DNA of 64,000 nt from an uncultured Gammaproteobacteria bacterium (GTDB lineage: Bacteria > Patescibacteriota > Microgenomatia > JALYQM01): positions 5,667 to 69,666 of the forward strand of contig CAYOFQ010000002.1 of NCBI GenBank assembly GCA_964403585.1. The letters are read 5' to 3'. Both the position numbers and the translations under genes were made by a program. Shown piece by piece: positions 36,911 to 63,701 of the stretch. The notes under the pieces are model-generated. The model had not been told where the DNA came from. It was given only the letters and a program-made list of their open reading frames with translations, and did no database searches. How positions within the stretch are numbered: position 1 is the first letter of the stretch; the number at the start of each line of letters is the position of its first letter.

Positions 36911-36981
36911 CCATCTTTCATGCCTAAGCACAAAACTACCGTCATATTATAACGCACAAAGCCATTTCGCACAATTGAAGA

Positions 36982-37530: not shown

Positions 37531-37595
37531 AAGCGAATAAAAAGGATTATACTGAACACAGAATATCAGATGTGCGTAATAATGCGCAAGAGCTA

Positions 37596-39419: not shown

Positions 39420-39518
39420 ACTTCAGTATAGCATAGTGCGGAGAGGATTGGGCGATATTTGAACTTTTCTAAGTCAATCCTCTTGTGCATAAAACAGAAA
39501 AATTCGTAAGATATTATT

Positions 39519-40343: not shown

Positions 40344-40397
40344 CCCTACATTTACAGATTCTGTAAAGACCTCTTCTGTTATAAACTTGAAGACTAC

Positions 40398-40491
40398 TGG
40401 CGGAGAGGGAGGGATTCGAACCCTCGATACGGGTTTAGGCCCATATAATTTCTTAGCAGGAAATCGCTTTCGTCCACTCAGCCACCTCTCC
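40398..40491 (-). tRNA. tRNA-Ser(GCU), CCA encoded
   Basis: GGAGAGGUGGCUGAGUGG…AUUUC-CUGCUAA-GAAAU…long variable arm…GAGGGUUCGAAUCCCUCCCUCUCCGCCA. Confidence 0.8.
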
Positions 40492-40552
40492 AAAGGTAAC
40501 CTGGAAACTTGAGGAAGTATATCACAAAACAGGCAGAAAATTCTCCCCCATC

Positions 40553-41380
40553 TTACGCAACCCGGTGACGAAGCCGTTTGAACTTGAACAAAAACCAGAT
40601 AAAAGCCACATAATAGACCATAATTGCCAGTTTCATCACACTGAATTCACGGTCAATCCCTACCAAACCCTTAAGCAAGTGTCCCACCATCGTTTCATCA
40701 TCAGGCAGGAAATTCAGTGGTATCGGCACAATACTGGACAAGTGAATATCACCATAAACCTCAAACAACTCCCCCAGTCCCCGCTGCACCAGAGCAGCAC
40801 CCGTTACCACAATTAAAGCCTCTGTGGCCTTAAAAATTTTACGGATCGGGAATTTGGTATACAGGAAGAATATAGCCAACCCAATCACGCTTGCACCGGC
40901 AAATCCCAAAAGCAATCCGACAAAATTCTGGAAAAAGACCGAAAAAAGCGCCGTACTGGCAGTAAATAAAGCTATCTCCGCCCCTTCACGAATCACCATA
41001 AAAAAGACCGTAAAAAAGAGCGAAAAATCAAACGCGTCCGGTCGAACACGTCCGGTTACCGTCGAAATCTGGTCACTATCCTTCTTTTTGAGGCGACCAT
41101 GTAAAGACAAAACTAAATAAACAATAAAGAACCCGGAGAAGGTCATTAAGTATCCCTCAAGCATATCCGCATTGCGTTCAGTCAACACCCCTCTGGCGAG
41201 ATCTCCAAACACATAGGTAAGACTGGAAAGAACTAATGAAAAGATCATTCCCACCCCGGCTGCCCAATAAATCTCACGCTCTTTTTTTAATTCAAGTTTC
41301 CGCGAAATCCCAAGGAAAACACCGGTAATCAGAAAGGCTTCTAAAAATTCACGAAAAGCAACAAGTGCAATAATTAACAT
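40553..41380 (-). CDS. FTR1/EfeU-family high-affinity iron permease
   Basis: Seven TM helices and the two RExxE motifs of the family (FREFLEAFL and VIREGAEIALF). Confidence 0.75.
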   Translation of the reverse strand: MLIIALVAFREFLEAFLITGVFLGISRKLELKKEREIYWAAGVGMIFSLVLSSLTYVFGDLARGVLTERNADMLEGYLMTFSGFFIVYLVLSLHGRLKKKDSDQISTVTGRVRPDAFDFSLFFTVFFMVIREGAEIALFTASTALFSVFFQNFVGLLLGFAGASVIGLAIFFLYTKFPIRKIFKATEALIVVTGAALVQRGLGELFEVYGDIHLSSIVPIPLNFLPDDETMVGHLLKGLVGIDREFSVMKLAIMVYYVAFIWFLFKFKRLRHRVA

Positions 41381-41452
41381 AGATCAACACTATACTAAAA
41401 ATAATATTTTGTGTATTTACAAATAAAACCCGAAGTAGTATAGTAACCTTGC

Positions 41453-42019
41453 ATGAGAAATACTCGTAAAACGCCCAACACTACTTGTGCTTACTGCCAA
41501 ATTCCTTTCTATAAAAAACCTTCAGAAATAAAAAAATATAAGCACACCTTTTGTTCGACTAAATGCTATGGAAAGTTTAGTAGCCACCCCTTAACTTGCA
41601 TTATCTGCGGAAAAGAATACCCAAGAAAATTTCACAAAAAAACCTGTAGCCGCAGCTGCGCTAATAAGCACCGAAGTGGAATAAAATATAAAGTAAATCG
41701 ACCAAGAGACAAAGTCGCTTACTCAACAGGGCTTAAAATACGCTTATTATCTGAAAGAGGCTCATCATGCCAAAGATGTAATTTCCCAAAAACAGAAATT
41801 TTAATTGTTCACCATAAAGACAGGGATAGGACCAACAACAACCTGAAAAATTTGGAGCTTATTTGCCCAAACTGTCATGCTGAAGAACACTATCTAGAAA
41901 AAAACTGGCTAAAAAGATATAATGTTCAGGAATTTAAAGAAAAGCTCCTTTTGAAAGAATCTGCTTACTTTATCTATCGTACGGAGAGGTCGCCTAGTGG
42001 TTTATGGCAGAAGTCTTGA
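41453..42019 (+). CDS. HNH-family endonuclease; 3' end overlaps tRNA-Ser(UGA)
   Basis: Cys-rich N-terminus; HNH core ILIVHHKDRDRTNNNLKNLELICPNCH. There is no in-frame stop before the tRNA, so the last roughly 15 codons read into it. Confidence 0.6.
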   Translation: MRNTRKTPNTTCAYCQIPFYKKPSEIKKYKHTFCSTKCYGKFSSHPLTCIICGKEYPRKFHKKTCSRSCANKHRSGIKYKVNRPRDKVAYSTGLKIRLLSERGSSCQRCNFPKTEILIVHHKDRDRTNNNLKNLELICPNCHAEEHYLEKNWLKRYNVQEFKEKLLLKESAYFIYRTERSPSGLWQKS

Positions 42020-42069
42020 AAACTTCCAGGTGATGAGCCTCGTGGGTTCGAATCCCACCCTCTCCGCCA
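41973..42069 (+). tRNA. tRNA-Ser(UGA), CCA encoded
   Basis: GGAGAGGUCGCCUAGUGG…GAAGU-CUUGAAA-ACUUC…long variable arm…GGGUUCGAAUCCCACCCUCUCCGCCA. Confidence 0.8.
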
Positions 42070-47409: not shown

Positions 47410-49164
47410 TTACCTGATCCCTACCCTTTCACGCACAAATAACTTTCTAAAACTATGATGTTCTTTAATATCCGGCAGCACGACAATAATCTCTGCATTG
47501 ACATCAAGATAGTCACCATTCGAAAAACCGTATTCACCTGATCGCGAGGGAGGCAAAGCTATCGGAGCAAGCAGTTGAATCCCTGCAAATGTTCGCTCAT
47601 GAAGAAATTGACTCCGGAACCAGGCACATGGATTCCGCTCTATACTGGAAAGCTGATCGGATTGACGTAAGTTTGACAACACAACCCCTGCGCCCGGTTT
47701 ATAAAGGAGCAAATTAGCCGTTACCCGGTACCGGTCTAAGTCAGTGTTAACCAGCCTATGGACAAGTACCGAAAAGTCTTTTTCCTCTTTAATCTGTGAA
47801 CGATACCGGATTCCATCTTTTGTAGCGCGTAAATAGTCAGGCAGTGAGTACAAAGCTGCCGGATCAAATAAAGACTTAAATGCCATCAAATAATGAGTAG
47901 CATTCGCATCAATCATCCCCTCACCTTGTACTAAACGATCAAGATTAATATCAAAGTCCGTTAAGTGCGCCTGCACACGCAGAGCGGCCTCTGGACCAAG
48001 AAGATCATGTAAATATGCATAGCGGGGATTCTCAGGATCGGCAAGAAAACCCGCCGCTAATTGGGCATAGTATTCAACCTGTTGCCGATACGGTTCTCGC
48101 CGTAAAAAAACTCGCGTTCCTGACTTTACTGAAGCATCAATCTGCCCTTTGCTCACCATATCCAACCCTGCATCAACCAATAGCAGTCTAAGGGAACTTT
48201 CCTTCCGCGCCGGATGAAGCATTTTCATTATCCGGATCTTGCGCTCCGTATCATAAACTACCCGATCTTCTTTTGTGCTGGCAACACGACTGCGCAATAC
48301 TTCCAGACTATACCTGTCATTAAGCACCGCCAGTAACGAAGAGAACCGGGTTAAATCATTCTTGTTGTCCCCCGGACCAAACCATCCGCCTTCTTCCAGC
48401 ACTGCGTCCTCTGAAAGTTCGAGCGACTGAATTATCTTTCCTAAACCGTGAAAGTTAGAATACACCAGCTGATGATACTCATGTGAGAATCTCTGTGTGT
48501 TCAATTCAGGATTACATACAATTGCCAGGTTAAGCATTAACGACTGCACTAATGCCGGATTATATTCAAAATCCCGCTGCACATACTCCTCGTCTCCACT
48601 AAGTAAGGCAAAATGTAATCGAGCTAAGCTAAAGAGATTATGGCAGGTATCAAAGAATATATACCGGTCCTGATCGGTTTTGAAGTTAAGACTGCTTAAA
48701 AAAGCTTCGGTAACCGGAGAGGTATACAGCATTCCCCGCAAAAACCGTTGAAAATGGTAATCCTCAGTCTCCACCAGCGGAAGTACTCCCGGCTTAATGG
48801 CCAATTCACGGGTAGCCAACAGACACGTCGCTTCGATCTCCCGTGAATGATAATATACCGGCTGAGCATCAGAAGTTTGCCGAGCGATCCGCTCAGCCAT
48901 TTGAAAGATATGTAGCCCTACCCCAGAATAATGATACAAACGGGCCAGCTGTGCCCGATCCTCAGGAAGCCCGATTAAATCTGCTAGATGTTCACAAAAT
49001 TCACTCCAGCGCGGGTCGGCATCCCTGCGCAATAGCACATCAAGCTGAGCCGGAGATTCTGTATGAATACGTTTTAACCGTACATGTGGAGCCAGTATCC
49101 CGGCTGCTATCTCTCGAGCATGAGCTTCAATATTCGAATAAGTGAGATCTTCCCCTGAACACAT
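47410..49164 (-). CDS. hypothetical protein (584 aa), middle gene of a three-gene operon
   Basis: Long ORF with a 3-nt gap to the downstream gene; no recognised motif. Confidence 0.5.
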   Translation of the reverse strand: MCSGEDLTYSNIEAHAREIAAGILAPHVRLKRIHTESPAQLDVLLRRDADPRWSEFCEHLADLIGLPEDRAQLARLYHYSGVGLHIFQMAERIARQTSDAQPVYYHSREIEATCLLATRELAIKPGVLPLVETEDYHFQRFLRGMLYTSPVTEAFLSSLNFKTDQDRYIFFDTCHNLFSLARLHFALLSGDEEYVQRDFEYNPALVQSLMLNLAIVCNPELNTQRFSHEYHQLVYSNFHGLGKIIQSLELSEDAVLEEGGWFGPGDNKNDLTRFSSLLAVLNDRYSLEVLRSRVASTKEDRVVYDTERKIRIMKMLHPARKESSLRLLLVDAGLDMVSKGQIDASVKSGTRVFLRREPYRQQVEYYAQLAAGFLADPENPRYAYLHDLLGPEAALRVQAHLTDFDINLDRLVQGEGMIDANATHYLMAFKSLFDPAALYSLPDYLRATKDGIRYRSQIKEEKDFSVLVHRLVNTDLDRYRVTANLLLYKPGAGVVLSNLRQSDQLSSIERNPCAWFRSQFLHERTFAGIQLLAPIALPPSRSGEYGFSNGDYLDVNAEIIVVLPDIKEHHSFRKLFVRERVGIR

Positions 49165-49212: not shown

Positions 49213-50391
49213 TTAGGCTTGGAACTGTCCACCACGAACTGCAGTTATGCTGCCATTCTGGTGCTCTGTTACAGCGACAACCGGAATTATCCCATCAGGA
49301 AGAGTTCCATTCTTCTGCAAAGTTTTTGCTAACGCAGGCATTGTCAGTCCGGCTTGCTTTCCTGCTTTAGCAGTCGCAGCCAAAACAAATTCTGACTCTG
49401 TTAAGGCAGAAGAATCCGCCTGGACACCGGCAAGAACAGCCCGCAACCCTTCCAATCCGCTTGCATAACGCATCTCGGCAACTTGCGGATATAAGGGGAA
49501 CAGTGGCTGACCATCCTGATCAGGCACAACAACTTTTACAGTATCGTCAGAAGTTAATCCTTCTTTAGTATATTGTGCTACCAGCAATTCACCATGATCA
49601 CCCGGGAGAAATTCAATATCAACATTTTTACCTGCCCACTTAGCACGGACAATAGCTTTAACAACATCTCCTACTAATCCCTGCCGGGCATCATATTCTC
49701 CGCTGCGGGAGTTCATTTGAGCCAGATGACCACACCCTAAGTATTTAACCATTAAGTCAAGCACGGCATCCTGTGTTGCTCGTGTATCGCTAACACCCAT
49801 CTCATCCAAAACACGCGCAGGATCGTTAATAAGTTCAACTATCCATTGATCTGCATCAACCTGTGCAGCGCGGGCAACCACCGCTTCCGGTAAATCTTCT
49901 ACCGCAGCTAAATTATGCGCCATTTTCTGCGCAGCATGCATATCTGAATGGAGATACACACCGCCATTCTGCTCTATATCACCATCCACTACTTTCTGGA
50001 CCATCTCGGGAGTGAACACAGTACCGGTTAGATCTTCAGCAGTGCTGATCTTTACTGCAATAATACCTGCATCGCCGGCAGGAACATTAACACTCTCTTT
50101 TTTACGACGCCCGTCAATACAGCAAATTTCTGCAATCTCAGCTACTTTCTGTTCCGCAGCAGCTCTAAATCTATCCTCTGCAATTGCTTCGGGATTAGTC
50201 TCTATCTCACGTTGTGTAGATTGTTCTTGCATGACACCTCCTTGTCCTCCAATAGACTCACTACGGCCATCAGTTAATCCGACAACCCGCCGAGGCGGAA
50301 TTGGCCCTTGGTGCCCTCGCTGATCGTTTCCGGAATCGGGAGCAAATAAGCGCTGGTCCATCTCAATAGGCAAATAAATTTCTCTCGGCAT
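49213..50391 (-). CDS. hypothetical protein (392 aa), first gene of a three-gene operon
   Basis: Long GC-richer ORF; no recognised motif. Confidence 0.5.
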   Translation of the reverse strand: MPREIYLPIEMDQRLFAPDSGNDQRGHQGPIPPRRVVGLTDGRSESIGGQGGVMQEQSTQREIETNPEAIAEDRFRAAAEQKVAEIAEICCIDGRRKKESVNVPAGDAGIIAVKISTAEDLTGTVFTPEMVQKVVDGDIEQNGGVYLHSDMHAAQKMAHNLAAVEDLPEAVVARAAQVDADQWIVELINDPARVLDEMGVSDTRATQDAVLDLMVKYLGCGHLAQMNSRSGEYDARQGLVGDVVKAIVRAKWAGKNVDIEFLPGDHGELLVAQYTKEGLTSDDTVKVVVPDQDGQPLFPLYPQVAEMRYASGLEGLRAVLAGVQADSSALTESEFVLAATAKAGKQAGLTMPALAKTLQKNGTLPDGIIPVVAVTEHQNGSITAVRGGQFQA

Positions 50392-50490: not shown

Positions 50491-51198
50491 TTGAACACCT
50501 CCCCTTTTGCTATAATCAAACCAATGCTACTCGACCTACTCTTCCCCAAGCAGTGCCTCTCCTGTAATAAATACGGTTCCTACATCTGTGATAACTGTGC
50601 GGCCAAAATAACCCGTCATAATCAAACCTGCATTGTCTGTTATCACTACTCACCATTCGGTAAAACCCACCCTGAATGCCAAAAACACACGCCACTTAAT
50701 GGCGCCATCCTGACAACCGAATATAAGGAACTGACACGCCATGCCCTCCACCAGATAAAATACAAACTAAACTACGATATCCTGAGAGAGCTCTTACAAA
50801 AAACACTCGACTCAAAAAAGATAGCGCAATGCCTAATTCAGGAAGAAATAGAGCTCTGCACCGAAGTACCTATGCATCCTTATAAACAGAATCAGCGGGG
50901 ATTCAATCAGGCATTGCTCATGGCAAAATGGCTCGCCGGACATTACTCCATTTCCTACCGGTCGCTGCTAATCAAGAAACACAACACCCTGCCACAAATG
51001 AAACTATCCCGTGAAGAACGGATCTTCAACATCAAAAATGCATTTTTAGTAAAAGATCCTTCCCTGATAAACGGCAGAAACATACTATTTGTCGATGATG
51101 TCACAACGACCGCCTCAACACTCGAAGAGTGTGCTTCCATCGCAAAAAAAGCAGGAGCAGGAAAAGTTTGGGCCATCGTCATAGCCGCTCGGCGATAA
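50491..51198 (+). CDS. comFC: ComF-family protein (phosphoribosyltransferase-like competence protein)
   Basis: N-terminal double-Cys zinc ribbon (CLSCNKYGSYICDNCAAKI…CIVCYHY) and PRTase motif ILFVDDVTTTASTLEE. Confidence 0.7.
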   Translation: MNTSPFAIIKPMLLDLLFPKQCLSCNKYGSYICDNCAAKITRHNQTCIVCYHYSPFGKTHPECQKHTPLNGAILTTEYKELTRHALHQIKYKLNYDILRELLQKTLDSKKIAQCLIQEEIELCTEVPMHPYKQNQRGFNQALLMAKWLAGHYSISYRSLLIKKHNTLPQMKLSREERIFNIKNAFLVKDPSLINGRNILFVDDVTTTASTLEECASIAKKAGAGKVWAIVIAARR

Positions 51199-51231: not shown

Positions 51232-52956
51232 ATGCTAATTACATCTATGAAATCTGCCCACCTCAAAGTAATTACCATAGCATTTTTAGTAACCGTCGGA
51301 ACCTGGGTAGCATTAATGGGCGCACGCGGTGCCAACCAGGTAGCCTTGCATGAAGTAAATAAACCTTCCATTATTGGAGCAGAACCCCAGATTAACGTAG
51401 CTGCAAAAATGGGTCCGCTCGTACCGAATCCCCGCCAGGAAACAGACGACCCGGCTATCTGGATCCACCCTACTAATCCCAGCAAAAGCTTCATGATTCT
51501 TTCAGATAAATATAAAGGAATGTTTGTCTTTGATTTTAATGGAAATCAAATTCAACAATTACAAGCTACAGATTGGAATTTATCCGGCAGAGTAAATAAC
51601 ATCGATCTGCGCAAAGGCTTTAAACTCGGCAATGAAACTGTTGATGTAGTCGCCGGAAATTTCCGCGATGCCGGTAAATTGGGTATGGCTAAAGTAAATC
51701 CGAATTGGGGCGGAACGGTAAAACCATTAGAAGTAATCCCGGGCACTCCAACCATTTCCAGTGCAAGTTATGGATTTACTCTATATAAGCGCAAATCCGA
51801 CGGCCAACTGTTTATGTTTGATCAACCTAAATCAAGCGCACCTATAAAGCAATGGAAAATTGACGGAAGCTCTGGAACAATTACAACGACCTTTGTGAGA
51901 GATGTAGCAACAATGGGAGTTGCCGAAGGATACGTCGCCGACGATGATGCCGGATTAGTATATTTCACTGAAGAAGGCACCGGCATTCATAAATATAATG
52001 CCGATCCGGATAATCCGGTTAAAACTCGCTTGAATCTTTTCGCTAACGGTTCAGATACCAAACCGGATCGCGAAGGGTTAACACTCTATGCCTGTAACGA
52101 CGGAACCGGTTACTTAATCCTCTCCAACCAGGGATACAGCAACTTTAAAGTATACAACCGTCAGGGCAATAATGAGCTGGTTAAAACTTTTACTGCAGAT
52201 AAATCCAAAGGCACCGATGGCTTGGATGTTACTGCCTATGCAGCACCCGGTTTCCCGAACGGATTTGCCATAATCCAAAACGATGCCTCTACAGCCGGCG
52301 GAGCGACCACAATGAGTTATTATGTCTATGATTGGGCATCAATCGCACAGTCGGATATGAAAATCTGCCCGAACGGTGGCGGTGGTGGACCAACTATTAA
52401 CCCGACACCGACTAACAACCCTACCCCAACCATCCATCCTACTCTTACAGCTAATCCAACCCCAACAGAAGACCCGTTTACACTCTGCGACAAAAACGCC
52501 TATTCCATCAACAATCCGGCCGGATGGAATTTCACCGAAGAGTGCTTACAAAGAGATAGTGTTATCTATCAAAACGATAACCGCTTTACCTTCTTCGGAG
52601 TACCAACAGACTACAATGAAATATCATATATAAAAACACCTAACAATGTCATCAAAGACAGCACAACCCTTAGCTGGTCAATTAATCTAACCAAAACTGC
52701 CGACGTCTACGTGTTCTACCGAAAAATCCCCGGCCAAACAGTACCGTCCTGGCTATCAACATACACCAAAGTAACCCCTGCTGGATACGCAGATCTACCG
52801 CAGCATATCTTAAGAAAAAATGAGTTAGGCTTAATTGGCGTATATGATATTTACAGGAAACGCTCAACACCCGGTAACGTCAGCTTCGGAGCAGCGTCAA
52901 CGTCCTCGGTAAACGCTTACTCCATGTACATCACAGCGATAAAAACCAATATCTAA
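51232..52956 (+). CDS. secreted beta-propeller phytase (3-phytase, BPP family) with C-terminal extension
   Basis: Signal peptide; blocks matching Bacillus PhyC from memory (ETDDPAIWIHPTNPSKS, YGFTLY, EGYVADDDAGLVYFTEE, DREGLTLYACNDGTGYLILSNQGYSNFKVYNRQG, TDGLDV); Pro/Thr linker and about 150-aa C-terminal domain. Confidence 0.8.
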   Translation: MLITSMKSAHLKVITIAFLVTVGTWVALMGARGANQVALHEVNKPSIIGAEPQINVAAKMGPLVPNPRQETDDPAIWIHPTNPSKSFMILSDKYKGMFVFDFNGNQIQQLQATDWNLSGRVNNIDLRKGFKLGNETVDVVAGNFRDAGKLGMAKVNPNWGGTVKPLEVIPGTPTISSASYGFTLYKRKSDGQLFMFDQPKSSAPIKQWKIDGSSGTITTTFVRDVATMGVAEGYVADDDAGLVYFTEEGTGIHKYNADPDNPVKTRLNLFANGSDTKPDREGLTLYACNDGTGYLILSNQGYSNFKVYNRQGNNELVKTFTADKSKGTDGLDVTAYAAPGFPNGFAIIQNDASTAGGATTMSYYVYDWASIAQSDMKICPNGGGGGPTINPTPTNNPTPTIHPTLTANPTPTEDPFTLCDKNAYSINNPAGWNFTEECLQRDSVIYQNDNRFTFFGVPTDYNEISYIKTPNNVIKDSTTLSWSINLTKTADVYVFYRKIPGQTVPSWLSTYTKVTPAGYADLPQHILRKNELGLIGVYDIYRKRSTPGNVSFGAASTSSVNAYSMYITAIKTNI

Positions 52957-54733: not shown

Positions 54734-55895
54734 ATAAATTCACTAGTCAACCTAAAATTCAAACAGATCACGCACCTCAACACCCAATCGCACAGCAAGC
54801 TTTATCAAATACCACACCGTTGTATTCACATATCCATTTTCAATTTTAGCCGGGACCGAAGTGAAAAGTATTATCTTCTCTCAATAATCATTTACAGATG
54901 TGGAAAAGTTACCGGTCTACAAGACAAACCATTTATGACAAAAAATCAGGGGTTGGAACCAGTACTTTATCCAGTCCTATTAAGGTTTTTGATGCTTTAA
55001 AAACATCAAAAGAAAATGATGTGGAGATGCCGATCTATGAAATCGGGTCTGGAATCTGTAATTAAAAACATCTACATAGCATAGTCGGTACTTATATCTC
55101 GTACCACAACGATCCTACCGACAGGAGAAGTGATACAAAGGTCAAAGTCTTAAAGGATTACAGCGACCACCCCGAATCCTCGCATACAATCTTTGTTTAC
55201 GCCCTACTCCGCTCGATTGTAAAATCAGAATAGAACGTCCATTGTTTAGCTAAAGAAAAGTTTAGCCAAATGCAGGATAGCTAACGCCTGCTACAGCGTT
55301 ACCCAAGCCGAAGTTTGGGAACTTTGCAGCGATTTTGTCAGCTATTGATGTAGAAGAATCTGCATCTATATTTTAGTCCCGTTTTTACGACTCTTGAGAC
55401 CATCGTCGGCTATGCAGTTTTTAAAGAGCACATCCCATCGAAACAACACATCCCCATGAGATTTTATGTTAAGACTAGTGCTTAACAAGACTGAATTATA
55501 ACACATTTTAAGCCATTTTTCCAGTAAAATAAACCTGCCAAACCGCTAATAGCAGAGCAAAGCTTTAAACGCAAGCAGAGCGAAGCCTTAATCGTATCAC
55601 TGGCAAGCTCGACAAGAAGGGTATAATTACCCTGTTGACATACATACACTAATGATATAACATATAAATATACTTACAGTATAACAGTCATCACTCGCTG
55701 TAAGTGTTCCTTAAAAATTCCTTTTCTGATTTCGTCGCAGACCCCGGGATCATATAAAAAGGGCACAATACATGTCCTGTCAGTATCTCATTATAGGTGC
55801 CGCTAAATTGGATAAGGAATTTATGAATAAACCCGTCTTTGAAACATAAGGCGGGTTTATTTTTATGCAAAGCCTTTCTCCCTTTACCCCTACAC

Positions 55896-55904
55896 TGGTA
55901 TAAT
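55896..55904 (+). promoter_or_regulatory. Extended -10 promoter element (TGGTATAAT) 6 nt upstream of the smpB ATG, implying a leaderless transcript
   Basis: TGnTATAAT consensus read directly; no room for a Shine-Dalgarno sequence. Confidence 0.4.
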
Positions 55905-55910
55905 ACGCTC

Positions 55911-56354
55911 ATGAAATCACTCGTCTACAACAAACGAGCCAAATTCGACTATTTTCTGGAAGACAAATACGAGGCAGGTATGGTACTTACCGGAGGAGAA
56001 GTCAAATCGATCCGGGAAGGCCGTGCAAGCCTCCAGGATAGCTTTGTGCGGGTTAAAAATGGTGAGGCTTACCTATTGAATGCCTTTATTAATCCCTACA
56101 GCTTCGCCGATAACAGAAACCTCGATCCACGCCGGGAACGCAAACTGTTACTCCATAAAAAACAAATCAACGAACTGATGGCTAAAAGTAATGGCAAAAA
56201 TACCACCATAGTTCCCGTTTCTTTCTACAACAAGAACAACACCATTAAAGTAGAGATCGCCATTGGTAAAGGTAAGAAACAATACGATAAACGCGCCGCT
56301 ATCAAGAAACGCGACTTAGATAAAAAAATCCAGCAGGAAATGAGGATTAGATAG
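55911..56354 (+). CDS. smpB: SsrA-binding protein SmpB
   Basis: MKSLVYNKRAKFDYFLEDKYEAGMVLTGGEVKSIREGRASLQDSFVRV…RKLLLHKKQI matches SmpB throughout. Start set at 55911 rather than the tracked 55839. Confidence 0.85.
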   Translation: MKSLVYNKRAKFDYFLEDKYEAGMVLTGGEVKSIREGRASLQDSFVRVKNGEAYLLNAFINPYSFADNRNLDPRRERKLLLHKKQINELMAKSNGKNTTIVPVSFYNKNNTIKVEIAIGKGKKQYDKRAAIKKRDLDKKIQQEMRIR

Positions 56355-56515: not shown

Positions 56516-58576
56516 TTACTCTTTCTTCGTCACATTTTCCTTCAACTCCACCTTAAAAATCTTCTGCTTTGTCAAAACATATAATTGCTTTTGCGCAACA
56601 TCAATTAGAATATCACTCGCATCTTTAAACTCTGGTGAAGTATATGTCGACACATAACTGCCATCCTTTTTAGAAACCACTACCACCCGGGCATTCATCT
56701 CATCCAGAATATATAAAAAATCAATCTCAGCATCAGTCGCAACCGCCCGTACATTTGTCAAATCCCCCTCCACTCCTGATACACTAAAGGTATCCTCTTT
56801 TCCTGAGAACAATTTAATAATATCCCCACTCTTTTTTCCGATCCACACATTTCCGTCGATCGCAAAACTAACTGCATCAGACAAATCCACCGTCACATCT
56901 GATGAAATATAATTACGAACCGGACCGAAACCATTCCCTTCAGGAATGTATTTCCAGATCTGAGCTTTTCCCTGATCTAAAAGGTATAAATTCCCGCCAA
57001 ATAGCTGAACATCAGTCAAGGTGCCCCAAACATCCGCGGGCTCAAGTAATCGCACCACTTCTGAACTTTGCTCTTGAGTACGCACAATACCTTTTCTTGC
57101 ACTCACACCGTAAGTAACAGTCTTATCACCTTCTGCACCGATCAATCCATCTAAATCATTAGGGCCAATCACCGCTGAGGCTGACCGTGTTTCCGTTCCT
57201 ACCTGGTATACGGAATTATGCGCAACATCTGCGACCAGCAACGCTGTTCCGGTAAGCGCAAATCGTTCCCCCACCGCCTGAGCATTTACCGTCGACAAAT
57301 CAAAGTAAGGTGAAAGATCAGTTAATGCGTATGTTTTAGTAACAACTCCATACGCCGACTCAATATCCCGGGATAACTTTTGAACTTCCGGATCTTTAAG
57401 AGTAGCCTCATCGAATTGCGATATAACCCGTCGGGCTTCCTGGAGATAATTCTTAGCTCGCTCGGGATTCAACTCAGCATAGTAAAGCCCTTGTTTATAC
57501 GCTTCTTCAGCTTGCGGCAATATTTCACTTTTAAGAACTGCGGTTTGCTTCTGGTTCTTAAACCTGTTCTCGTAATCATGTCCAATAAAAATAAACCCTG
57601 CAAATAAAAGCAGGATCATACATCCTAAAATAAAAACTCGTCGTCGGGTAAAAAAACTGGTAATTTTCTTACCGGCAGCAGCAATCTTACCCCGCGCCGC
57701 AGAAGGAATAATTTTTGCACTAAACCCTCGAATCGAAGCTTCTGATGAAAACAATCGCTCCCGCTCGGGGACCGGACTAGACAACGCAGCATCAACAGCA
57801 AGCTCTTTCTCAACAAACTCCGGATCCTCAGTCAGGGGAAGAGGTGAAGTAACATCTTCCTCCCGGCTTTCAGCAAAAACGATACTCTCTTCCTCTATAG
57901 AAGGCACGGCATCCGAACCGACATAACATCCAACAATACAGCAACTCGGATGAGTTTGTATTGGTTCATTAAAATACTGGGCTAATTTGGAATACGCTAA
58001 TGCCGAATCTAATTCTTTTAAACTTCCTAAGGTCAAAGGAAAATGACTTGTATCAACAGAACGATTAAATAAGCACAAAGTATCATTGGGTTGAATATAT
58101 CCGGAGAGACTTACAGCCAGGCTGGATCCTGAAGAGTCATCCGTCTCAAACAAATTTCCAAAAGTAGCCTCACGGTATAACCTCATTCCTGTCATTCCCC
58201 CACACCGAACCGTATACAAAACACTGCCCCAAACCACACCTATACAAAGCGAAAAATCAATATTCTCAACATTACCATACTCAAGGATCTTCTTCTCAAT
58301 GAAAGCCTGAGTTTGACGAACACAGTCCAGTAAATGTCCATGAACAGATACACACTCTCCCTGATAATATAATCCTTCAAAAAAAGGAAACACTTCCCTC
58401 CCCATTTGATCTATCGGGAAAACTTCCGGATACGTTATACAAAACAAACCAAAGATTCTCCCATGTGAAGCCAAAACAGAACCGACAGGACTGGTCAGAG
58501 GTAATCCTTCTACATATGATCCGGGAGCCGAAGCCGAGCTAAAAACAAATGGCTGGAAATTGAGCAGAGTATCCAT
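56516..58576 (-). CDS. large bitopic membrane protein: cytoplasmic N-terminal domain, single TM, extracytoplasmic beta-rich domain; function unknown
   Basis: TM at VFILGCMILLLFAGFIFIG; the C-terminal half is rich in short beta-strand repeats. Confidence 0.5.
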   Translation of the reverse strand: MDTLLNFQPFVFSSASAPGSYVEGLPLTSPVGSVLASHGRIFGLFCITYPEVFPIDQMGREVFPFFEGLYYQGECVSVHGHLLDCVRQTQAFIEKKILEYGNVENIDFSLCIGVVWGSVLYTVRCGGMTGMRLYREATFGNLFETDDSSGSSLAVSLSGYIQPNDTLCLFNRSVDTSHFPLTLGSLKELDSALAYSKLAQYFNEPIQTHPSCCIVGCYVGSDAVPSIEEESIVFAESREEDVTSPLPLTEDPEFVEKELAVDAALSSPVPERERLFSSEASIRGFSAKIIPSAARGKIAAAGKKITSFFTRRRVFILGCMILLLFAGFIFIGHDYENRFKNQKQTAVLKSEILPQAEEAYKQGLYYAELNPERAKNYLQEARRVISQFDEATLKDPEVQKLSRDIESAYGVVTKTYALTDLSPYFDLSTVNAQAVGERFALTGTALLVADVAHNSVYQVGTETRSASAVIGPNDLDGLIGAEGDKTVTYGVSARKGIVRTQEQSSEVVRLLEPADVWGTLTDVQLFGGNLYLLDQGKAQIWKYIPEGNGFGPVRNYISSDVTVDLSDAVSFAIDGNVWIGKKSGDIIKLFSGKEDTFSVSGVEGDLTNVRAVATDAEIDFLYILDEMNARVVVVSKKDGSYVSTYTSPEFKDASDILIDVAQKQLYVLTKQKIFKVELKENVTKKE

Positions 58577-58619
58577 TACATAGAATATATCAGAAAAATG
58601 GAAGAAAGCGAAAGATCGA

Positions 58620-58856
58620 CTAGGACAAGAAAGACAACAGTGTCAAACCAAACAAACCAATCGCGCCTAATAGCAGAAACAAACTGATCACCACAAAAAC
58701 CGGCGCCAGCTGCGTCCTCAATACCCGATTCATCATTTGTACTTGGCGCATAATCAAAAACGTAAACCCTAAAACACCAAAAGAAACAACAGCAAAGATA
58801 ACCTTAATTAAAAGTATAAAAGCGGAATCAAAAGAAAAATCGGTAAAATTATCCAT
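58620..58856 (-). CDS. small two-TM membrane protein
   Basis: 78 aa, two hydrophobic helices, immediately downstream of the bPH_2 gene. Confidence 0.4.
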   Translation of the reverse strand: MDNFTDFSFDSAFILLIKVIFAVVSFGVLGFTFLIMRQVQMMNRVLRTQLAPVFVVISLFLLLGAIGLFGLTLLSFLS

Positions 58857-58857
58857 A

Positions 58858-59457
58858 TTAGTGCTCTTTCCTGCTAATTACTCCCCCATGCTCGGCAACA
58901 AGTTCACCAACCAGTCGGCTCACTTGATCAGGATACGGAATGTCATCAAACTCGATGTTGGTCATTTCCGCTGCGGTCTGTACAAAAACATCACCGTAAT
59001 TAAATGCCAGCTGAAACGCACCGGCTACTTCCGAACGGACATCCTGTATTTTAGTAAATTGGGCTTCTGCAAAGTTCTTGTTAAACAACCCCACAAAATC
59101 GACATCAATAATACGGTCATTAGTAATAATATTTACTGTAAAGAACCAAATCAGGAGACGCTCAAAACCATAAGCAAATACTAATAAATACCAGAAGATA
59201 AACATCGCGAAGCGCAACATGAGTGGAAGACTTTCATACATATTAGGTGCCAGATACAGTACCGCTCCTTGAGCAAAAAGTGGCACCAGCAGCATAGCAA
59301 AGACTCCCACGATCCAGGGTACATTAGTAATCTGATGCTTGCGAATCAGGAGATATAACTGCTCCCCTTCCTGTTGCTCGTTGAAGATCACTGAACGAGG
59401 CTGGACCAGGAACGCGGAGGTCAGAGTATTGTTATTGCGTGCTGCAGGTAAATGCAT
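58858..59457 (-). CDS. membrane-flanked bacterial PH-domain (bPH_2 / YdbS-YdbT-like) protein
   Basis: Two TM helices followed by a PH-like beta-rich domain. Confidence 0.5.
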   Translation of the reverse strand: MHLPAARNNNTLTSAFLVQPRSVIFNEQQEGEQLYLLIRKHQITNVPWIVGVFAMLLVPLFAQGAVLYLAPNMYESLPLMLRFAMFIFWYLLVFAYGFERLLIWFFTVNIITNDRIIDVDFVGLFNKNFAEAQFTKIQDVRSEVAGAFQLAFNYGDVFVQTAAEMTNIEFDDIPYPDQVSRLVGELVAEHGGVISRKEH

Positions 59458-59510: not shown

Positions 59511-61253
59511 TTATTTCTTCTCAATATTAAACAAGGCGCTCTGGATAAATAACTCACCCGGAGCACGCAGGTTAAACACTTGCTTAAATAAATCACCACT
59601 AATGGTTACTGTACCTTTATCAGTCTGGAAACTAACCTGATTAGTATATCCGCCATTAGCATATTGAGTAGAACCGATACCGGTAACGGAATTCACCGCA
59701 TCACCCCCAAGCTCCTGTTTTACCCGTTCAACCGACCAGGTATCACCGTTTGCTTTATCAGTCTGGGATACATGGGTAATGTTATTTCCGTCTTTCTTTA
59801 CCACCAGCACGGCATTCACAATATCGGCCATTTCTGATGAATTTAACCATGGATGCTTACGGGAACCACCACCACCGCGCGGCTTATACCAACCTTTATA
59901 AAACCAGGGGGAACCCGCAATCTTTTCATAGGCATCACCGGTCCAGCAACTCTGCGACCCGCACTTAGTATCCCACAACATCGGAGTGCTATGCCCTCGA
60001 CCTGAGTATGAATAAATCGCACCACCGGCAGTTGAAGCATAATAAGTCGTGATCATATCGTTAGAGGAGTTCGAAACAACGACCATACCTTTCGTTTCTT
60101 CCACTGCCTTATGCCATATGCTCGCTACCCCGCTGGTAGCCTTACTTGAGTTGTATACTTGACATGATTCAGTAATACAGATTGGTTTTGAAGCCACCAT
60201 TGCATAAGTACGGGCCGCAATAGCCTGAGCCTTCTGAGCTTCTAAATCCCACGATGAAGGCATCTCGGCAATACCCTTTAAGTAATTACCTTCAAAATCC
60301 AACGCTCCGGAACTGGTTTGAATTGTCGACGGAAAATCTCGCTTCTCAACACGGATATTCCCATAATACGCTTTAAGAATAGTTTCGTAATTTTGCCCGC
60401 TCTTAGCACGTCCTAAAGCGCCATACTGGCTCATTCCTTTGCGGTGTGGAGCTCCGAAAGAAAATGCTGCAAATGCCGGCGAGAAACCCGGATTATAGGT
60501 AGGGCTCGATGCTGCATCATCAGTCAAAGGGACATCCCCCACTGAAGACGTAAATGATCCGGTCTTCTCTGCTAATAATTGCTGTTGCCTGGCCGACAAA
60601 GCAGCAATCTGCGTCGATAAATCTGCCTGATACTTCTTTGCTTTAGCAATCTCTGCCTCATAAAAAGTTGCTTCTTTTGCAGTCTTCTCTTTTATTGAAG
60701 CCAGTCTGGAATTTTCTTTTTGTAAATCATTTTTAAGTTTCTCTGCGGTAGCCTTATCATCGTTGAGCGAACGCAACTCTGCACCAATACCTTTAATAAA
60801 TCGCTGATCTTCCTCAAGCGCCGCTTCTCTATAAGCAAGCCTTCTCGTTGCATCTCCTAATTCCGAACTTGAGAACAAAATCATTAACGGTGATGTACTT
60901 TTTGAGGTTATATAATAGGAATTTACCTTAGACTCAAACATATCCTGCTGTTCTTGCAGGCGTCCATCAGATTCTGCAATTGAGGTCTGCAGCCGTTTAA
61001 GTTCTTTTTGCTTCTGAGCTATTTGGCCTTCAACTTTTGTAATGGAATTCTTAACGCTATTAAGAGTGGTGGTTAAGCTGGTTAACTGCCCTTCCAAAGG
61101 CTTGGTAGCTTTTACTGAAGCTTCTCGGGCTGACTGCAATTCAGACAGCTTTTTTTCAATATCATCCAACTCATCAGCAAATACCAATGATAAAGAAGTG
61201 GAAGAGTGAATGAGTAAAGATAAACTGAGGATAAAAAGCAAAAAAGCTTTCAT
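59511..61253 (-). CDS. SpoIID/LytB-domain protein with N-terminal signal peptide and long coiled-coil
   Basis: Start at MKAFLLFILSLSLLIHS… (61253); about 200-aa coiled coil; C-terminal SpoIID-like blocks (AQKAQAIAARTYA, CQVYNS, YYASTAGGAIYS). Confidence 0.7.
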   Translation of the reverse strand: MKAFLLFILSLSLLIHSSTSLSLVFADELDDIEKKLSELQSAREASVKATKPLEGQLTSLTTTLNSVKNSITKVEGQIAQKQKELKRLQTSIAESDGRLQEQQDMFESKVNSYYITSKSTSPLMILFSSSELGDATRRLAYREAALEEDQRFIKGIGAELRSLNDDKATAEKLKNDLQKENSRLASIKEKTAKEATFYEAEIAKAKKYQADLSTQIAALSARQQQLLAEKTGSFTSSVGDVPLTDDAASSPTYNPGFSPAFAAFSFGAPHRKGMSQYGALGRAKSGQNYETILKAYYGNIRVEKRDFPSTIQTSSGALDFEGNYLKGIAEMPSSWDLEAQKAQAIAARTYAMVASKPICITESCQVYNSSKATSGVASIWHKAVEETKGMVVVSNSSNDMITTYYASTAGGAIYSYSGRGHSTPMLWDTKCGSQSCWTGDAYEKIAGSPWFYKGWYKPRGGGGSRKHPWLNSSEMADIVNAVLVVKKDGNNITHVSQTDKANGDTWSVERVKQELGGDAVNSVTGIGSTQYANGGYTNQVSFQTDKGTVTISGDLFKQVFNLRAPGELFIQSALFNIEKK

Positions 61254-61363
61254 CCAAAAAGGTACACGCGAGAACATACTTTCATAATACCATACTAAAA
61301 TAAAGAGTACGCTAAACATCCGATTTACAATTAAGAAACACATGCTTATGATAAAATAAACGT

Positions 61364-61786
61364 ATGAAGAAATGTTTAATTCTCATCCTCTTTTGTTTCT
61401 CATTTTTTGTTGCCCAGAATAGTATAGTTTTTGCCGCACCAACAGTCGAATGCAGCGCCACAATCAAGTGTCCTGCAGGTAAGTCGTGTGTTGGCTCATT
61501 TTGTGTTCAAGCTGCTCCCAGCCTACGCCCTGAATTCCAACAGGAAGGAGCCTTAACCTTTGCCGTCTCTCGATTCTTTACCTATTTATTGCCGGTTATC
61601 GGTATTCTCGGTTTCCTGCTTTTCCTCTGGTCGGGCTTCCAATTCCTGATGAGTAAAGGCGATCCTAAAGCCCTTGCCGCAGCTCAAGCGAGATTAACCT
61701 ATACCGCTATCGGATTGCTAATAATTTTCCTGGCATATAGTATTACAGCATACACAACCGGATTATTTGGATTGGTAACACCATGA
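61364..61786 (+). CDS. T4SS-pilin-like (TrbC/VirB2-like, CPR-type) small membrane protein, paralog 1
   Basis: Signal peptide, Cys-rich N-terminal segment, two TM helices and the family core WSGFQFLMSKGDPKALAAAQARLTYTAIGLLIIF. Confidence 0.65.
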   Translation: MKKCLILILFCFSFFVAQNSIVFAAPTVECSATIKCPAGKSCVGSFCVQAAPSLRPEFQQEGALTFAVSRFFTYLLPVIGILGFLLFLWSGFQFLMSKGDPKALAAAQARLTYTAIGLLIIFLAYSITAYTTGLFGLVTP

Positions 61787-62205
61787 AAAAAGTATTTAAG
61801 AAAAGCTTTATCATCTCAATATTTGTATGTATCGGACTCTTGGGTATCAAAAATATTCAAGCTGCCAGCTCCGTTCCGGTTGCTACCTGCCAACCGATCC
61901 CGGGACAGGGAGTCTCCATTCAGGATTGTGCGAACGCTAACTTCCCAAAGGGTGCGCCCACTACGATCGGTGGTTGGGTTTCTACCATCTTAGGCCAGGT
62001 ATATACCATAGCGCTTGTCGTCATGCTCGCCTATTTAATCTGGGGTTCATATCGTTTTATGATGGCCGCCGGAGACCCCAAAGCCATTGCCGCAGCCAGA
62101 GCCCATCTGACGTGGGCAATCGCTGGTATGATCATCGTGTTTGTGGCATATTGGATATATCGTGTCATCAACGAACTGGCATTCTATGTATTCCAGGACA
62201 TTTAA
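61783..62205 (+). CDS. T4SS-pilin-like protein, paralog 2
   Basis: WGSYRFMMAAGDPKAIAAARAHLTWAIAGMIIVF core; start overlaps the upstream stop. Confidence 0.65.
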   Translation: MKKVFKKSFIISIFVCIGLLGIKNIQAASSVPVATCQPIPGQGVSIQDCANANFPKGAPTTIGGWVSTILGQVYTIALVVMLAYLIWGSYRFMMAAGDPKAIAAARAHLTWAIAGMIIVFVAYWIYRVINELAFYVFQDI

Positions 62206-62222
62206 TGGTACTATAAAAACAT

Positions 62223-62849
62223 ATGTATATATATAAATTGTTCTTAGATGTAATCGCAGCCGTAGCACCCCCTGAACCGGGAAGCAATACCCCAAGCAAT
62301 GAAGCCGGAAGCATTGTCGGACGAATTTTCCCTCCATTTCCCGGATTTAGCGGATCAATCAGTTTAACCAGATATTTTCTTACCTTATTCAATACAGCCC
62401 TCTATGTCGGCCTCGTCGCTGCTCTTATATATATAGTCTACGGAGCAATCAAATGGATTACCTCGGGCGGAGATATCAAAGCCCTCGCCGCAGCTCGCAA
62501 TACCATTACCCACGCTATAATGGGTGTTATCCTTCTTTCACTCGGCTTAGTCATGAGTCAGGTTGTCGGAACATTTGTCTCTCCCACACTCGACGACACT
62601 AATTCAAAGGCAGTATATATCTGCGGCTATGGCAGCCGCAAAGAACAATGCGATTTAAGTGGCATTCCACCATCAGAATGTTATCAGTCTATTACCTGTC
62701 ACCAAGTCTACTCACGTATTTTAAATGAAAAGGCCGACAAACTACAAATGAGCTACCCAAGCCAATACTGCTTCAGTGCCCAGGAATGCGACAAGGGCTG
62801 TAAACAAAATGAATTAATTAACACATATAAATATTGCCAGCCAATCTAA
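62223..62849 (+). CDS. T4SS-pilin-like protein, paralog 3, with Cys-rich C-terminal extension
   Basis: GAIKWITSGGDIKALAAARNTITHAIMGVILL core plus about 90 aa C-terminal containing 10 Cys. Confidence 0.6.
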   Translation: MYIYKLFLDVIAAVAPPEPGSNTPSNEAGSIVGRIFPPFPGFSGSISLTRYFLTLFNTALYVGLVAALIYIVYGAIKWITSGGDIKALAAARNTITHAIMGVILLSLGLVMSQVVGTFVSPTLDDTNSKAVYICGYGSRKEQCDLSGIPPSECYQSITCHQVYSRILNEKADKLQMSYPSQYCFSAQECDKGCKQNELINTYKYCQPI

Positions 62850-62853
62850 GAAT

Positions 62854-63204
62854 ATGAATAGTAAAAAATTACTTATCTTTTTCATACTGCTCACGGGGTT
62901 AATACCTACCCGGCTGGCTGAAGCGGCCGGGCTGGGAACCTTAAGTCCACCGACTGGTACAACTCTAGATCTGAATGCCAACGTTATCCGTTTTGTTAAT
63001 TTTGCTATCGGCAGCGGTACGGTTGTTTTTCTGTACATGTTTGTCCGTGGAGCGATTGAATGGACTATTTCCGAGGGAGATAAAATGAGGCTCGAAACCG
63101 CACGAAACCGCATGACCCAAGCCGCTATCGGACTACTGCTTTTAGGTACCTGTTTCGCAATCGCATCAATTGTGAGATCCTTAACCTATTCACGGGGATT
63201 TTAA
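62854..63204 (+). CDS. T4SS-pilin-like protein, paralog 4
   Basis: RGAIEWTISEGDKMRLETARNRMTQAAIGLLLL core. Confidence 0.6.
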   Translation: MNSKKLLIFFILLTGLIPTRLAEAAGLGTLSPPTGTTLDLNANVIRFVNFAIGSGTVVFLYMFVRGAIEWTISEGDKMRLETARNRMTQAAIGLLLLGTCFAIASIVRSLTYSRGF

Positions 63205-63262
63205 ACAATTTTGGAAAAAATATGGTATAATAAGTTGTCTTGAAGGGAGGTGAATTTAAAAC

Positions 63263-63646
63263 ATGTTCAAAAAAGCATATGCAAAATTAGTTGGTGTTTC
63301 ATCAGCAGCAACAGCGGTATTATCTTTGGCAACGGCTACATACGCTCAGGTAACCTTATCGTTCCCTACTACCAGCCAATACGGTTTCAACGATTTGCCA
63401 ACAGCTCTTAGCGGAGTCTTAAACCTCGTTTTCTTCTTTGCGTTAATCTTAGTTTTGATCTACCTCGTTTGGGGTGGTATCCAGTGGATCACATCCGGTG
63501 GAGACAAAGCAGGAACTGAAGCAGCTCGAGGTAAGATCACTGGCGCTATCGTCGGTATCATTATCGTTGCAGTAGCATTCGCAATCTTCCGATTGCTCAT
63601 GACATTCGTCGGTGCTACAAACTCTATCGTTATCACCAAACAATAA
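63263..63646 (+). CDS. T4SS-pilin-like protein, paralog 5
   Basis: Strong RBS GAAGGGAGGTG; WGGIQWITSGGDKAGTEAARGKITGAIVGIIIV core; followed by a terminator. Confidence 0.65.
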   Translation: MFKKAYAKLVGVSSAATAVLSLATATYAQVTLSFPTTSQYGFNDLPTALSGVLNLVFFFALILVLIYLVWGGIQWITSGGDKAGTEAARGKITGAIVGIIIVAVAFAIFRLLMTFVGATNSIVITKQ

Positions 63647-63670
63647 AACTCAAAAACAAAATAGAGTTAA

Positions 63671-63701
63671 AAATACCGGTCTTTATGACCGGTATTTTTT
63701 T
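63671..63701 (+). terminator. rho-independent terminator after the pilin-like gene array
   Basis: Stem ATACCGGTC / GACCGGTAT followed by a T7 run. Confidence 0.65.

Follow-up and report, generated by a model that had tools for sequence, protein, structure and literature searches.

A tandem array of five pilin-like genes beside a divergent SpoIID gene: a probable type IV secretion subunit set in a Microgenomatia-class Patescibacterium

This article deals with a 64,000-nt window of DNA (contig CAYOFQ010000002.1 of assembly GCA_964403585.1; all window coordinates count from its first letter), in which five small genes, here called P1 to P5, lie head to tail on the + strand at 61364-63646, next to a divergently transcribed gene for a secreted, coiled-coil SpoIID/LytB protein. 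Our searches confirmed that all five belong to the PF18895 pilin-like family, which is abundant in the candidate phyla radiation (CPR)/Patescibacteria. [quoted passage not shown] The array is probably the VirB2-like subunit set of a chromosomal, monoderm-type (resembling the mating pair formation class FATA, MPF-FATA) T4SS of a Microgenomatia-class Patescibacterium, with the mode of assembly that we propose below.

The array itself belongs to the published class of Patescibacteria T4SS pilin arrays and is no new kind of system. Its SpoIID partner, the Cys-rich ectodomains on the first gene, the conserved last-gene subunit, and a very rare 8-Cys domain, on the other hand, appear to be undescribed so far. 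Across a very large bacterial group, most of it uncultured, the T4SS has been conserved, and it may build a pilus on cells with a single membrane.

The five pilin-like genes and their cysteine-rich extensions

The array, its extensions, and its candidate signals are as follows.

61364-61786, +: P1, 140 aa; pilin-like, with a signal peptide, a 4-Cys N-terminal module, and a two-helix hairpin (PF18895, 31.8 bits)
61783-62205, +: P2, 140 aa; pilin-like (PF18895, 32.5 bits; NF045849, 41.3 bits)
62223-62849, +: P3, 208 aa; pilin-like hairpin at residues ~45-120, without a canonical signal peptide (PF18895, 23.5 bits)
62583-62846, +: C-terminal 8-Cys domain of P3, an 88-aa extension predicted to be extracytoplasmic
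62854-63204, +: P4, 116 aa; the most divergent pilin-like subunit (PF18895, 15.2 bits; motif; positional orthologs)
63263-63646, +: P5, 127 aa; the most conserved pilin-like subunit (PF18895, 29.8 bits)
61324-61352, +: promoter-like site in the intergenic region between the divergent units, upstream of P1 (10/12 positions in a consensus scan; pattern match only)
63202-63231, +: promoter-like site upstream of P5, TAAACA, 18 nt, and TATAAT with TG (10/12 in a consensus scan, extended -10; pattern match only)
63669-63699, either strand: bidirectional terminator-like site at the end of the array; a stem-loop of 13 bp with T and A runs on its flanks

An earlier note, made from the letters of the window alone, had described five tandem genes of one pilin-like architecture, and hydropathy and alignment agree with it, as does the PF18895 model for P1, P2, and P5. 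Each protein has two hydrophobic helices with a GD...A..R..T..G pattern between them. In the alignment, for which P1 served as reference, the residues G, D, A, T, and G of the loop and second helix are invariant at a pairwise identity of only 19-27%, and P4 keeps GD...AR...T..G. The motif proposed in the note stands for its GD..A.AR loop, found in all five, but its tryptophan occurs in three of the five paralogs. A signal peptide had also been claimed for all; it is classical in P1, P2, and P4, and P5 has an Ala/Ser/Thr-rich leader, but by hydropathy P3 has no canonical one (window 62223-62360, +). The same holds for both orthologs of P3 (67% and 64% identical), even though all three bear a domain that is expected to be extracytoplasmic. 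The interhelix loop is short and mostly net-positive; that of P4 is neutral, and the loops of P3 and P4 carry Lys or Arg. AlphaFold2 (AF2) places the P3 hairpin at residues 48-80 and 85-124 with a predicted local distance difference test score (pLDDT) above 90.

The note had pointed to PF18895 as the family to check. With this profile hidden Markov model (HMM), whose gathering cut-off is a whole-protein score of 26.6 bits, P1, P2, and P5 pass, but P3 and P4 fall below. We count the latter two as members because of the shared motif, their positional orthologs, and the profile searches. P2 also passes NF045849 (Mbov_0395 pilin-like conjugal transfer protein; cut-off 40 bits), for which P5, P1, and P4 score below the cut-off (19.8, 18.6, and 13.1 bits) and P3 gives no match. 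A profile built from the five paralogs retrieved 337 proteins from a collection of 5.8 billion sequences; among the 120 matches listed, nearly all are PF18895 proteins, and some are named "pilin" by NCBI.

The genes are tightly spaced. From P1 to P5 the intergenic gaps are -4, 17, 4, and 58 nt, the start of P2 overlapping the stop of P1, and the unit is transcribed divergently from the SpoIID gene (59511-61343, -) out of a short shared intergenic region. The Shine-Dalgarno sequence GGGAGGTG precedes P5, and the combination of a promoter-like site with an extended -10, GGGAGGTG, and a terminator is seen at P5 alone.

The five genes differ markedly in how fast they evolve. Positional orthology, from P1 to P5 against b1 to b5, is kept in related loci (numbered with the prefix L), and even P4 has orthologs in L003, L006, and L007. 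P5 is 94% identical to its ortholog in L003, 73% in L007, and 71% in L006, as against 60-69% (L003) and 36-58% (L007/L006) for P1-P4; the SpoIID protein reaches 85% in L003 and 56% in L007, the second figure covering L007 only. Among array proteins, the P5 type also gives the best similarity across loci. Its conservation, the highest in the array, together with a promoter-like site, a strong ribosome-binding site, and a terminator of its own, makes P5 the probable major subunit. Such a candidate would be a handle for modelling, antibodies, or tagging.

These rates also bear on the idea that the array is a variation cassette of interchangeable pilins expressed alternately so as to change the antigen or the host range, a role proposed for VirB2 paralogs in Bartonella and Anaplasma. 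The faster evolution of P1-P4 relative to both P5 and the flanking genes would suit it, as would the range of array sizes in relatives (2-9 genes), and the idea has been raised in the literature (PMC12102498). The paralogs are, however, only 19-27% identical to one another and have one-to-one positional orthologs in L003, L006, and L007; their tight or overlapping spacing implies co-transcription; and repeated DNA is limited to 28-nt stretches coding for the conserved GDPKALAAA motif, with no invertible or cassette-type repeats. We consider such a cassette very unlikely, and the antigenically variable filament imagined in the note finds no backing in this positional orthology and lack of recombination repeats.

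Two of the subunits carry Cys-rich extensions, as the note had claimed. The mature N-terminus of P1 holds C30, C36, C42, and C47 (C-x5-C-x5-C-x4-C, four Cys within 18 residues), a module that its L007 ortholog retains, and the mature N-terminus of P2 has two Cys. P3 ends in the 88-aa domain with eight Cys, all eight of which are invariant in three orthologs. Extracytoplasmic Cys counts are even in the array proteins. The notion of decorated subunits fits these even counts, outward-facing termini of the VirB2 type, and the fact that related loci have extensions of this kind again and again.

The P3 domain is very rare. An exhaustive HMMER search of 1.84 billion representative proteins gave only two true clusters, both pilin-like; the second is a 267-aa pilin-like protein with a signal peptide and an N-terminal 4-Cys module. 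The domain has no Pfam match. The note had called for structure prediction of the Cys-rich domains, and for P3 this succeeded for the hairpin but not for the 8-Cys domain (AF2 pLDDT 55-68), a confidence too low for a fold assignment, which we dropped.

The first gene of the array is the usual place for such decoration. In arrays beside SpoIID, the SpoIID-adjacent pilin has a median length of 205 aa and a median of six Cys in its N-region, with at least four in 40 of 56 arrays; among the other pilins the median is 121 aa and no Cys, and a C-terminal Cys-rich extension occurs in 6 of 196 non-first pilins. The first-gene ectodomains of relatives span 100-400 aa and are heterogeneous, several of the longest having Pro/Thr-rich linkers, and many end, just before the first helix, in a motif like T-A-(I/L)-G-C-(I/L/V)-P. 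The window's P1 represents a minimal form of this ectodomain. A single repeated module family was rejected, because no more than 28 of the 62 Cys-rich N-extensions conform to C-x(4-8)-C-x(3-6)-C-x(4-12)-C. Host recognition would be a natural candidate role for this recurring class of pilin-like proteins, whose surface domains are rich in Cys.

More extreme extensions were seen elsewhere. In L139 (901-3444, -) the C-terminal extension of a pilin-like protein reaches 743 aa and contains 16 Cys, at a place where near-identical loci carry a gene of 113 aa, and in L163 (301-3953, -) three adjacent pilin-like genes of 365-487 aa have N-terminal extensions with 30-37 Cys. At 37596-39419 (-) the window itself encodes a DsbD-type transmembrane domain fused to Redoxin and Thioredoxin_10 domains, an extracytoplasmic thiol-redox protein. 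Its presence shows that extracytoplasmic thiols can be handled by the organism, which bears on the many Cys-rich surface domains.

The secretion machinery and the proposed assembly

Pfam scans of most window open reading frames (ORFs) of at least 110 aa revealed no T4SS or type IV pilus machinery in the window. Three ORFs (49213-50391, 47410-49164, and 33926-36397) were considered as TrsD-like, VirB4, and PrgI-like candidates and were rejected: their lengths equal or nearly equal those of the relative's proteins, a coincidence because BLASTP shows no similarity. The VirB4- and VirB6-like genes for which the note had advised a search were thus not found in the window, but a PrgI-like gene is reached in L002, and TrsD-like and VirB4 genes stand in the relative L003/L005.

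Locus L002 is identical to the window and extends beyond its end, where genes for PMT-family and YfhO-family GT-C glycosyltransferases are followed by the N-terminus of a PrgI-like protein. This PrgI/VirB3-like gene lies 3.8 kb downstream of the array, and its first 307 residues are 69% identical to the 823-aa PrgI-like protein of L003. In L003/L005, a syntenic relative with a P3 ortholog of 67% identity, one side holds SmpB, a 685-aa protein, DUF5657, a bacterial-PH (bPH) protein, and SpoIID, and then come six pilins, PMT, and YfhO. After YfhO follow the PrgI-like, TrsD-like, and VirB4 genes (3.7-9.2 kb downstream), two pilin-like genes, and the genes for a small secreted protein and for a polytopic membrane protein of 373 aa. 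The PrgI-like protein matches PF12666 with 28.1 bits, and VirB4 matches NF045971 with 387.5 bits (cut-off 325); the VirB4 and TrsD-like proteins also match the VirB4 model of the Mycoplasma integrative and conjugative element (ICE). The products of the two pilin-like genes after VirB4 are extended at the N-terminus by Cys-rich stretches of 142 and 180 residues.

With the relative's VirB4 as query, 80 loci were obtained from species-representative genomes, many of them labelled Curtiss-, Woese-, Shapiro-, Gottesman-, or Levybacteria (Microgenomatia). The PrgI-like/TrsD-like/VirB4 core is present in 78-80 of the 80, and pilins precede the polytopic protein in every locus where the region is visible. 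We call this protein "VirB6-like" by position only.

L002 (12667-12696) and L171 (1-54; GCA_964462765.1, CAYWYZ010000006.1) break in the same (CCACAG)n repeat, a part of the PrgI-like gene that codes for (PQ)n, and this shared end is likely an assembly break. L171 encodes a TrsD-like protein, VirB4, a pair of pilins, and the polytopic protein, and it may be the continuation of the window's contig; the identity that the two share is confined to the repeat.

GT-C genes stand within pilin/T4SS loci of two distant lineages, PMT and YfhO in L002 (8156-11672) and L003 (9259-12799) and GT87 in L075 (5290-6534). They might point to glycosylation of Ser/Thr/Pro-rich pilin ectodomains. Pilin glycosylation by the adjacent PMT and YfhO enzymes was set aside: the linkage is found only in the closest relatives and is absent from the 80 SpoIID loci described below.

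VirB2 has both termini outside and its loop toward the cytoplasm or lumen. From this topology, together with the net-positive loop of P3 and the even extracytoplasmic Cys counts, we infer the orientation of P1-P5. Each subunit would be inserted in the membrane with both termini outside and the short loop in the cytoplasm. From there the ATPase VirB4, together with the polytopic VirB6-like protein, would pull the subunits out and pile them up as a pilus or as a conduit that spans the wall. P5 would serve as the bulk subunit, and P1-P4 as co-transcribed, low-abundance, faster-evolving, and non-redundant minor subunits. The 4-Cys module of P1 and the 8-Cys domain of P3, disulfide-bonded, would sit on the outer face, where they could contact a host. 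With less confidence, we propose that SpoIID, as a member of a lytic-transglycosylase family, opens the peptidoglycan for the apparatus and replaces the VirB1 that is absent from most such genomes.

Several results weigh against this picture. Besides the low PF18895 scores of P3 and P4 and the missing signal peptide of P3, kinship with canonical TrbC/VirB2, which the note had asserted, could not be shown. P1-P5 give zero matches to PF04956 (TrbC/VirB2) at E up to 1. Two family members, P0054 and P0071, come just under its cut-off of 27.9 bits (24.9 and 27.4 bits) and form the sole apparent bridge; a tblastn search with a bridging member against plasmids found nothing. With six VirB2/TrbC genes taken from plasmids as the canonical comparison set, an hhalign comparison with 70 family members yielded a probability of 5% over 18 columns. 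The profile gave nothing below E = 0.79 against PDB sequences, and the best Foldseek match of the P3 model in the PDB (E = 0.78) and its fellows are generic hairpins, the hairpin fold itself being generic. Homology to canonical VirB2/TrbC could accordingly not be demonstrated, and we say that the subunits would work like VirB2 because of their architecture and gene context. Likewise, Pfam, NCBIfam, and a PDB profile search showed no VirB6 or PrgH homology of the 373-aa polytopic protein, so that its identity as VirB6 by sequence was dropped as well. The source genome's own VirB4 was not recovered. Finally, a pilus has yet to be seen in any Patescibacterium, and no substrate is known for this secretion system (PMC11665869, PMC12857230).

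These points feed a reading in which no pilus is made at all: the hairpins would form a short stalk or channel lining in membrane and wall, or act as assembly chaperones, with the paralogs at fixed positions. The positional orthology of P1-P5 between species suggests just such fixed, non-redundant roles, no pilus has been seen in Patescibacteria (PMC12857230), and homology to pilus-forming VirB2 is not demonstrable. That the first gene of an array carries an ectodomain of 100-400 aa, however, fits surface exposure better than burial, and the Gram-positive PrgF has been modelled and labelled as a pilus-like tube (bioRxiv 10.64898/2025.12.18.695078). On balance we find a role limited to a short stalk, a channel lining, or assembly chaperones unlikely, and we keep to a VirB2-like subunit set as the probable role of the array.

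The array has also been pictured as a filament for DNA uptake that works with ComF. The ComF gene named in the note is real (50491-51198, DZR_2 and Pribosyltran domains), and T4SS-based DNA uptake exists in Helicobacter pylori (cited in PMC11665869). The gene is not next to the array, though, but about 10 kb off, behind phytase, CorA, tmRNA, SmpB, and other, unrelated genes, which leaves the suggested link to DNA uptake without its footing. Competence pili, moreover, are built of type IV pilins and not of VirB2-type hairpins, and in S. epibionticum the T4SS is essential but competence is dispensable (PMC10633639, PMC12857230). A competence role is therefore the most improbable of the readings considered here.

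The divergent coiled-coil SpoIID protein and its flank

The following features lie on the other side of the shared intergenic region.

59511-61343, -: secreted coiled-coil SpoIID/LytB protein, 610 aa (TIGR02669, 99.5 bits)
56516-59457, -: conserved block of three genes downstream of SpoIID, possibly part of the T4SS
58858-59457, -: bPH protein with two transmembrane segments
58620-58856, -: DUF5657 protein
56516-58576, -: 686-aa membrane protein

That the array stands beside a secreted SpoIID/LytB protein was seen correctly in the note: its divergent neighbour exceeds the TIGR02669 cut-off (83.3 bits) and matches PF08486 with 58.9 bits. The true start of the gene is probably internal, at ~61253 (MKAFLLF...). 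SpoIID-family enzymes are lytic transglycosylases. The protein begins with a coiled coil of ~200 aa, and its AEMP segment aligns with the GEMS segment of Clostridioides difficile SpoIID (5i1t), which we take to be the site of the catalytic Glu. The score for the sporulation equivalog TIGR02870 lies far below the cut-off (49.5 against 234.75 bits). Pfam and NCBIfam showed no SLT, lysozyme, or CHAP domain, and the protein does not belong to a VirB1-type family.

The SpoIID/LytB domain looks circularly permuted (window 59904-60500, -). GxGxGMSQxGA...YY is C-terminal in 5i1t (275-326) and occupies residues 282-332 here, before the AEMP segment at 345-385.

The case for a role in secretion comes from the gene neighbourhood. 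A metagenome scan gave 80 full-length SpoIID relatives with 41-52% identity. A divergent pilin gene lies within 1.5 kb of SpoIID in 50 of the 59 loci with at least 1.2 kb upstream, and a divergent pilin array stands beside it in 31 of 37 clusters dereplicated at 80% SpoIID identity. In a two-sided count over the 35 loci whose sequence reaches 3 kb or more to either side, a pilin or polytopic protein occurs within 3 kb in 34 and the bPH/686-aa/SmpB flank in 28; six loci keep the T4SS side only, and none keeps the housekeeping side only. Because of this conserved position beside pilin arrays, which echoes the order lytic transglycosylase, pilin, VirB3 of six canonical plasmid loci, we suggest that SpoIID may open the wall for the apparatus. 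In lineages where no VirB1 homologue is found, a conserved partner that hydrolyses peptidoglycan could explain how the wall is crossed.

The genes of the downstream block were found behind SpoIID in 53 and 37 of the 80 loci and are lost in six that keep the pilin side; it is possible that the bPH/DUF5657/686-aa block belongs to the secretion system. SmpB is within the conserved SpoIID-side block in 33 of the 80 loci. In the window, a tmRNA gene (55019-55455, -; 91.3 bits) adjoins SmpB (55839-56354, +).

A division role for SpoIID is a serious rival, because its coiled coil appears to resemble those of EnvC and PcsB, which are division hydrolases controlled by FtsEX. SpoIID would then be an ordinary hydrolase of division or wall growth, controlled for example by FtsEX via the coiled coil, and its adjacency to the array an inherited gene order. 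Several observations count here against a secretion role. Residues 41-251 match 8tzk_E ("Peptidase M23", EnvC-type; E = 3.2e-5), a kind of match that coiled-coil composition can produce, and CC_PcsB gives 18.7 bits, under its cut-off of 27. The housekeeping SmpB/tmRNA region is kept in 33 of 80 loci (SmpB counted; tmRNA seen in the window). In L075, a T4SS locus of the Levybacteria type, the pilin array is flanked by an OmpR-type regulator and a transporter, and there is no SpoIID. The 80 loci, too, are the closest 80 of 369 relatives and not a random sample. The coiled-coil matches are compositionally weak, however, the pilin/VirB6-like linkage (34/35) is tighter than that of the housekeeping flank (28/35), and the T4SS linkage survives in six loci in which this flank has been replaced, the reverse never being seen. 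We give the division role almost as much credence as its opposite.

The boldest version of the preferred reading combines all of these elements. In it, Microgenomatia would build a mixed filament from a P5-type major subunit and position-specific minor ones, whose disulfide-rich ectodomains, N-terminal on the first gene and rarely C-terminal as in P3, would be displayed on the filament and set host specificity, with the circularly permuted SpoIID as a dedicated enzyme for breaching the wall, the "missing VirB1", and maybe the bPH/DUF5657/686-aa genes as an accessory module. We regard this full combination as rather unlikely.

Known systems and other features of the window

The closest published counterparts are the arrays of other Patescibacteria. 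Southlakia epibionticum ML1 has an essential 6-pilin array inside an essential T4SS locus (Wang et al. 2023, PMC10633639). Quinonero-Coronel et al. (2025) searched 3,035 genomes with PF18895 and PF04956 and catalogued 441 arrays of 2-11 pilins with an average identity of ~25%, which are abundant in Microgenomatia (PMC12102498). A 2025 review singles these T4SS out as the only ones of monoderms with a potential to form conjugative pili (PMC12857230). The array described here is likewise made of tandem PF18895 genes, divergent (19-27% against 25%), chromosomal, and close to PrgI/TrsD/VirB4, with no relaxase or coupling protein in view. It differs in the two GT-C glycosyltransferase genes between array and virB4 operon and in the second pair of extended pilins after virB4 in this lineage. 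We found no mention of a divergent coiled-coil SpoIID, a first-gene Cys-rich ectodomain, or the P3 8-Cys domain in PMC10633639 and PMC12102498; in the latter, neither "SpoIID" nor Cys-rich pilin extensions appear.

The VirB2/TrbC/TraA pilins (PF04956; T-pilus, R388, RP4, and F) share with P1-P5 the leader, the two hydrophobic helices, and the short charged loop, and both are encoded alongside VirB3/VirB4-type genes and a lytic transglycosylase, which six Alphaproteobacterial plasmids show in the order lytic transglycosylase, VirB2, VirB3. In contrast, no sequence or profile homology of P1-P5 to these pilins is detectable, the canonical systems have one pilin and a VirB5 tip protein rather than 5-9 paralogs, and their pilins are without Cys-rich ectodomains, the host here being a monoderm.

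PrgF(B2) of Enterococcus pCF10 and Mbov_0395 of the Mycoplasma ICE are, like P1-P5, small two-helix proteins of monoderm MPF-FATA-type T4SS, a likeness underlined by the NF045849 score of P2. PrgF, a VirB2-like protein, is essential for conjugation and has been modelled as a pilus on a VirB6 pentamer (bioRxiv 10.64898/2025.12.18.695078, December 2025). Those systems, however, are conjugative, with a relaxase and a coupling protein, and have one functional subunit each per the cited work, and four of the five paralogs here stay below the NF045849 cut-off.

As for SpoIID, a wall-cutting enzyme at the edge of a T4SS or pilin locus is also seen with VirB1, PrgK, TraG of pIP501, and the S. epibionticum peptidase/lysozyme genes downstream of virB4. 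Unlike these, it has the SpoIID/LytB fold and not SLT, lysozyme, or CHAP, together with a possibly EnvC/PcsB-like coiled coil and a domain permuted relative to the solved SpoIID structure. Its likeness to VirB1 would thus be a functional analogy, inferred from gene linkage only, and not family membership. With the sporulation SpoIID (TIGR02870) it shares the catalytic domain and the conserved AEMP segment, but its score is far below the equivalog cut-off. Patescibacteria are not known to sporulate.

Elsewhere in the window, a few features deserve a short description. At 18404-18681 (-) lies a tRNA gene whose anticodon loop is interrupted by a 205-nt group I intron (Rfam RF00028, 79.7 bits at 18451-18657). 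ARAGORN, with introns allowed, calls it tRNA-Asn (GTT); the default tRNA scan had missed the gene. Four tRNA-Ser isoacceptors (GGA, CGA, GCU, and UGA) and a tRNA-Arg are found within 9 kb at 33121-42069, where the beginning of tRNA-Ser(UGA) coincides with part of an ORF for an HNH endonuclease (41453-42019).

At 10116-11567 (+) this Patescibacteria-type window encodes a cytochrome P450 of full length (251.6 bits). Patescibacteria are usually described as fermentative, and a cytochrome P450 is unusual there; the gene may have been acquired. In the stretch around it, from 8 to 14 kb of the window, the GC content is 46-49%, against 35-44% nearby. At 11612-14203 (+), an 863-aa predicted surface protein carries C-type lectin, Big_5, fibronectin III, and LysM domains.

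Three paralogs with a RibD_C domain are present (5777-6469, 14186-14755, and 15392-16051, all -), and a type I restriction-modification system, HsdS and HsdM, lies near them at 2157-5704. The phytase mentioned above is encoded at 51232-52956.

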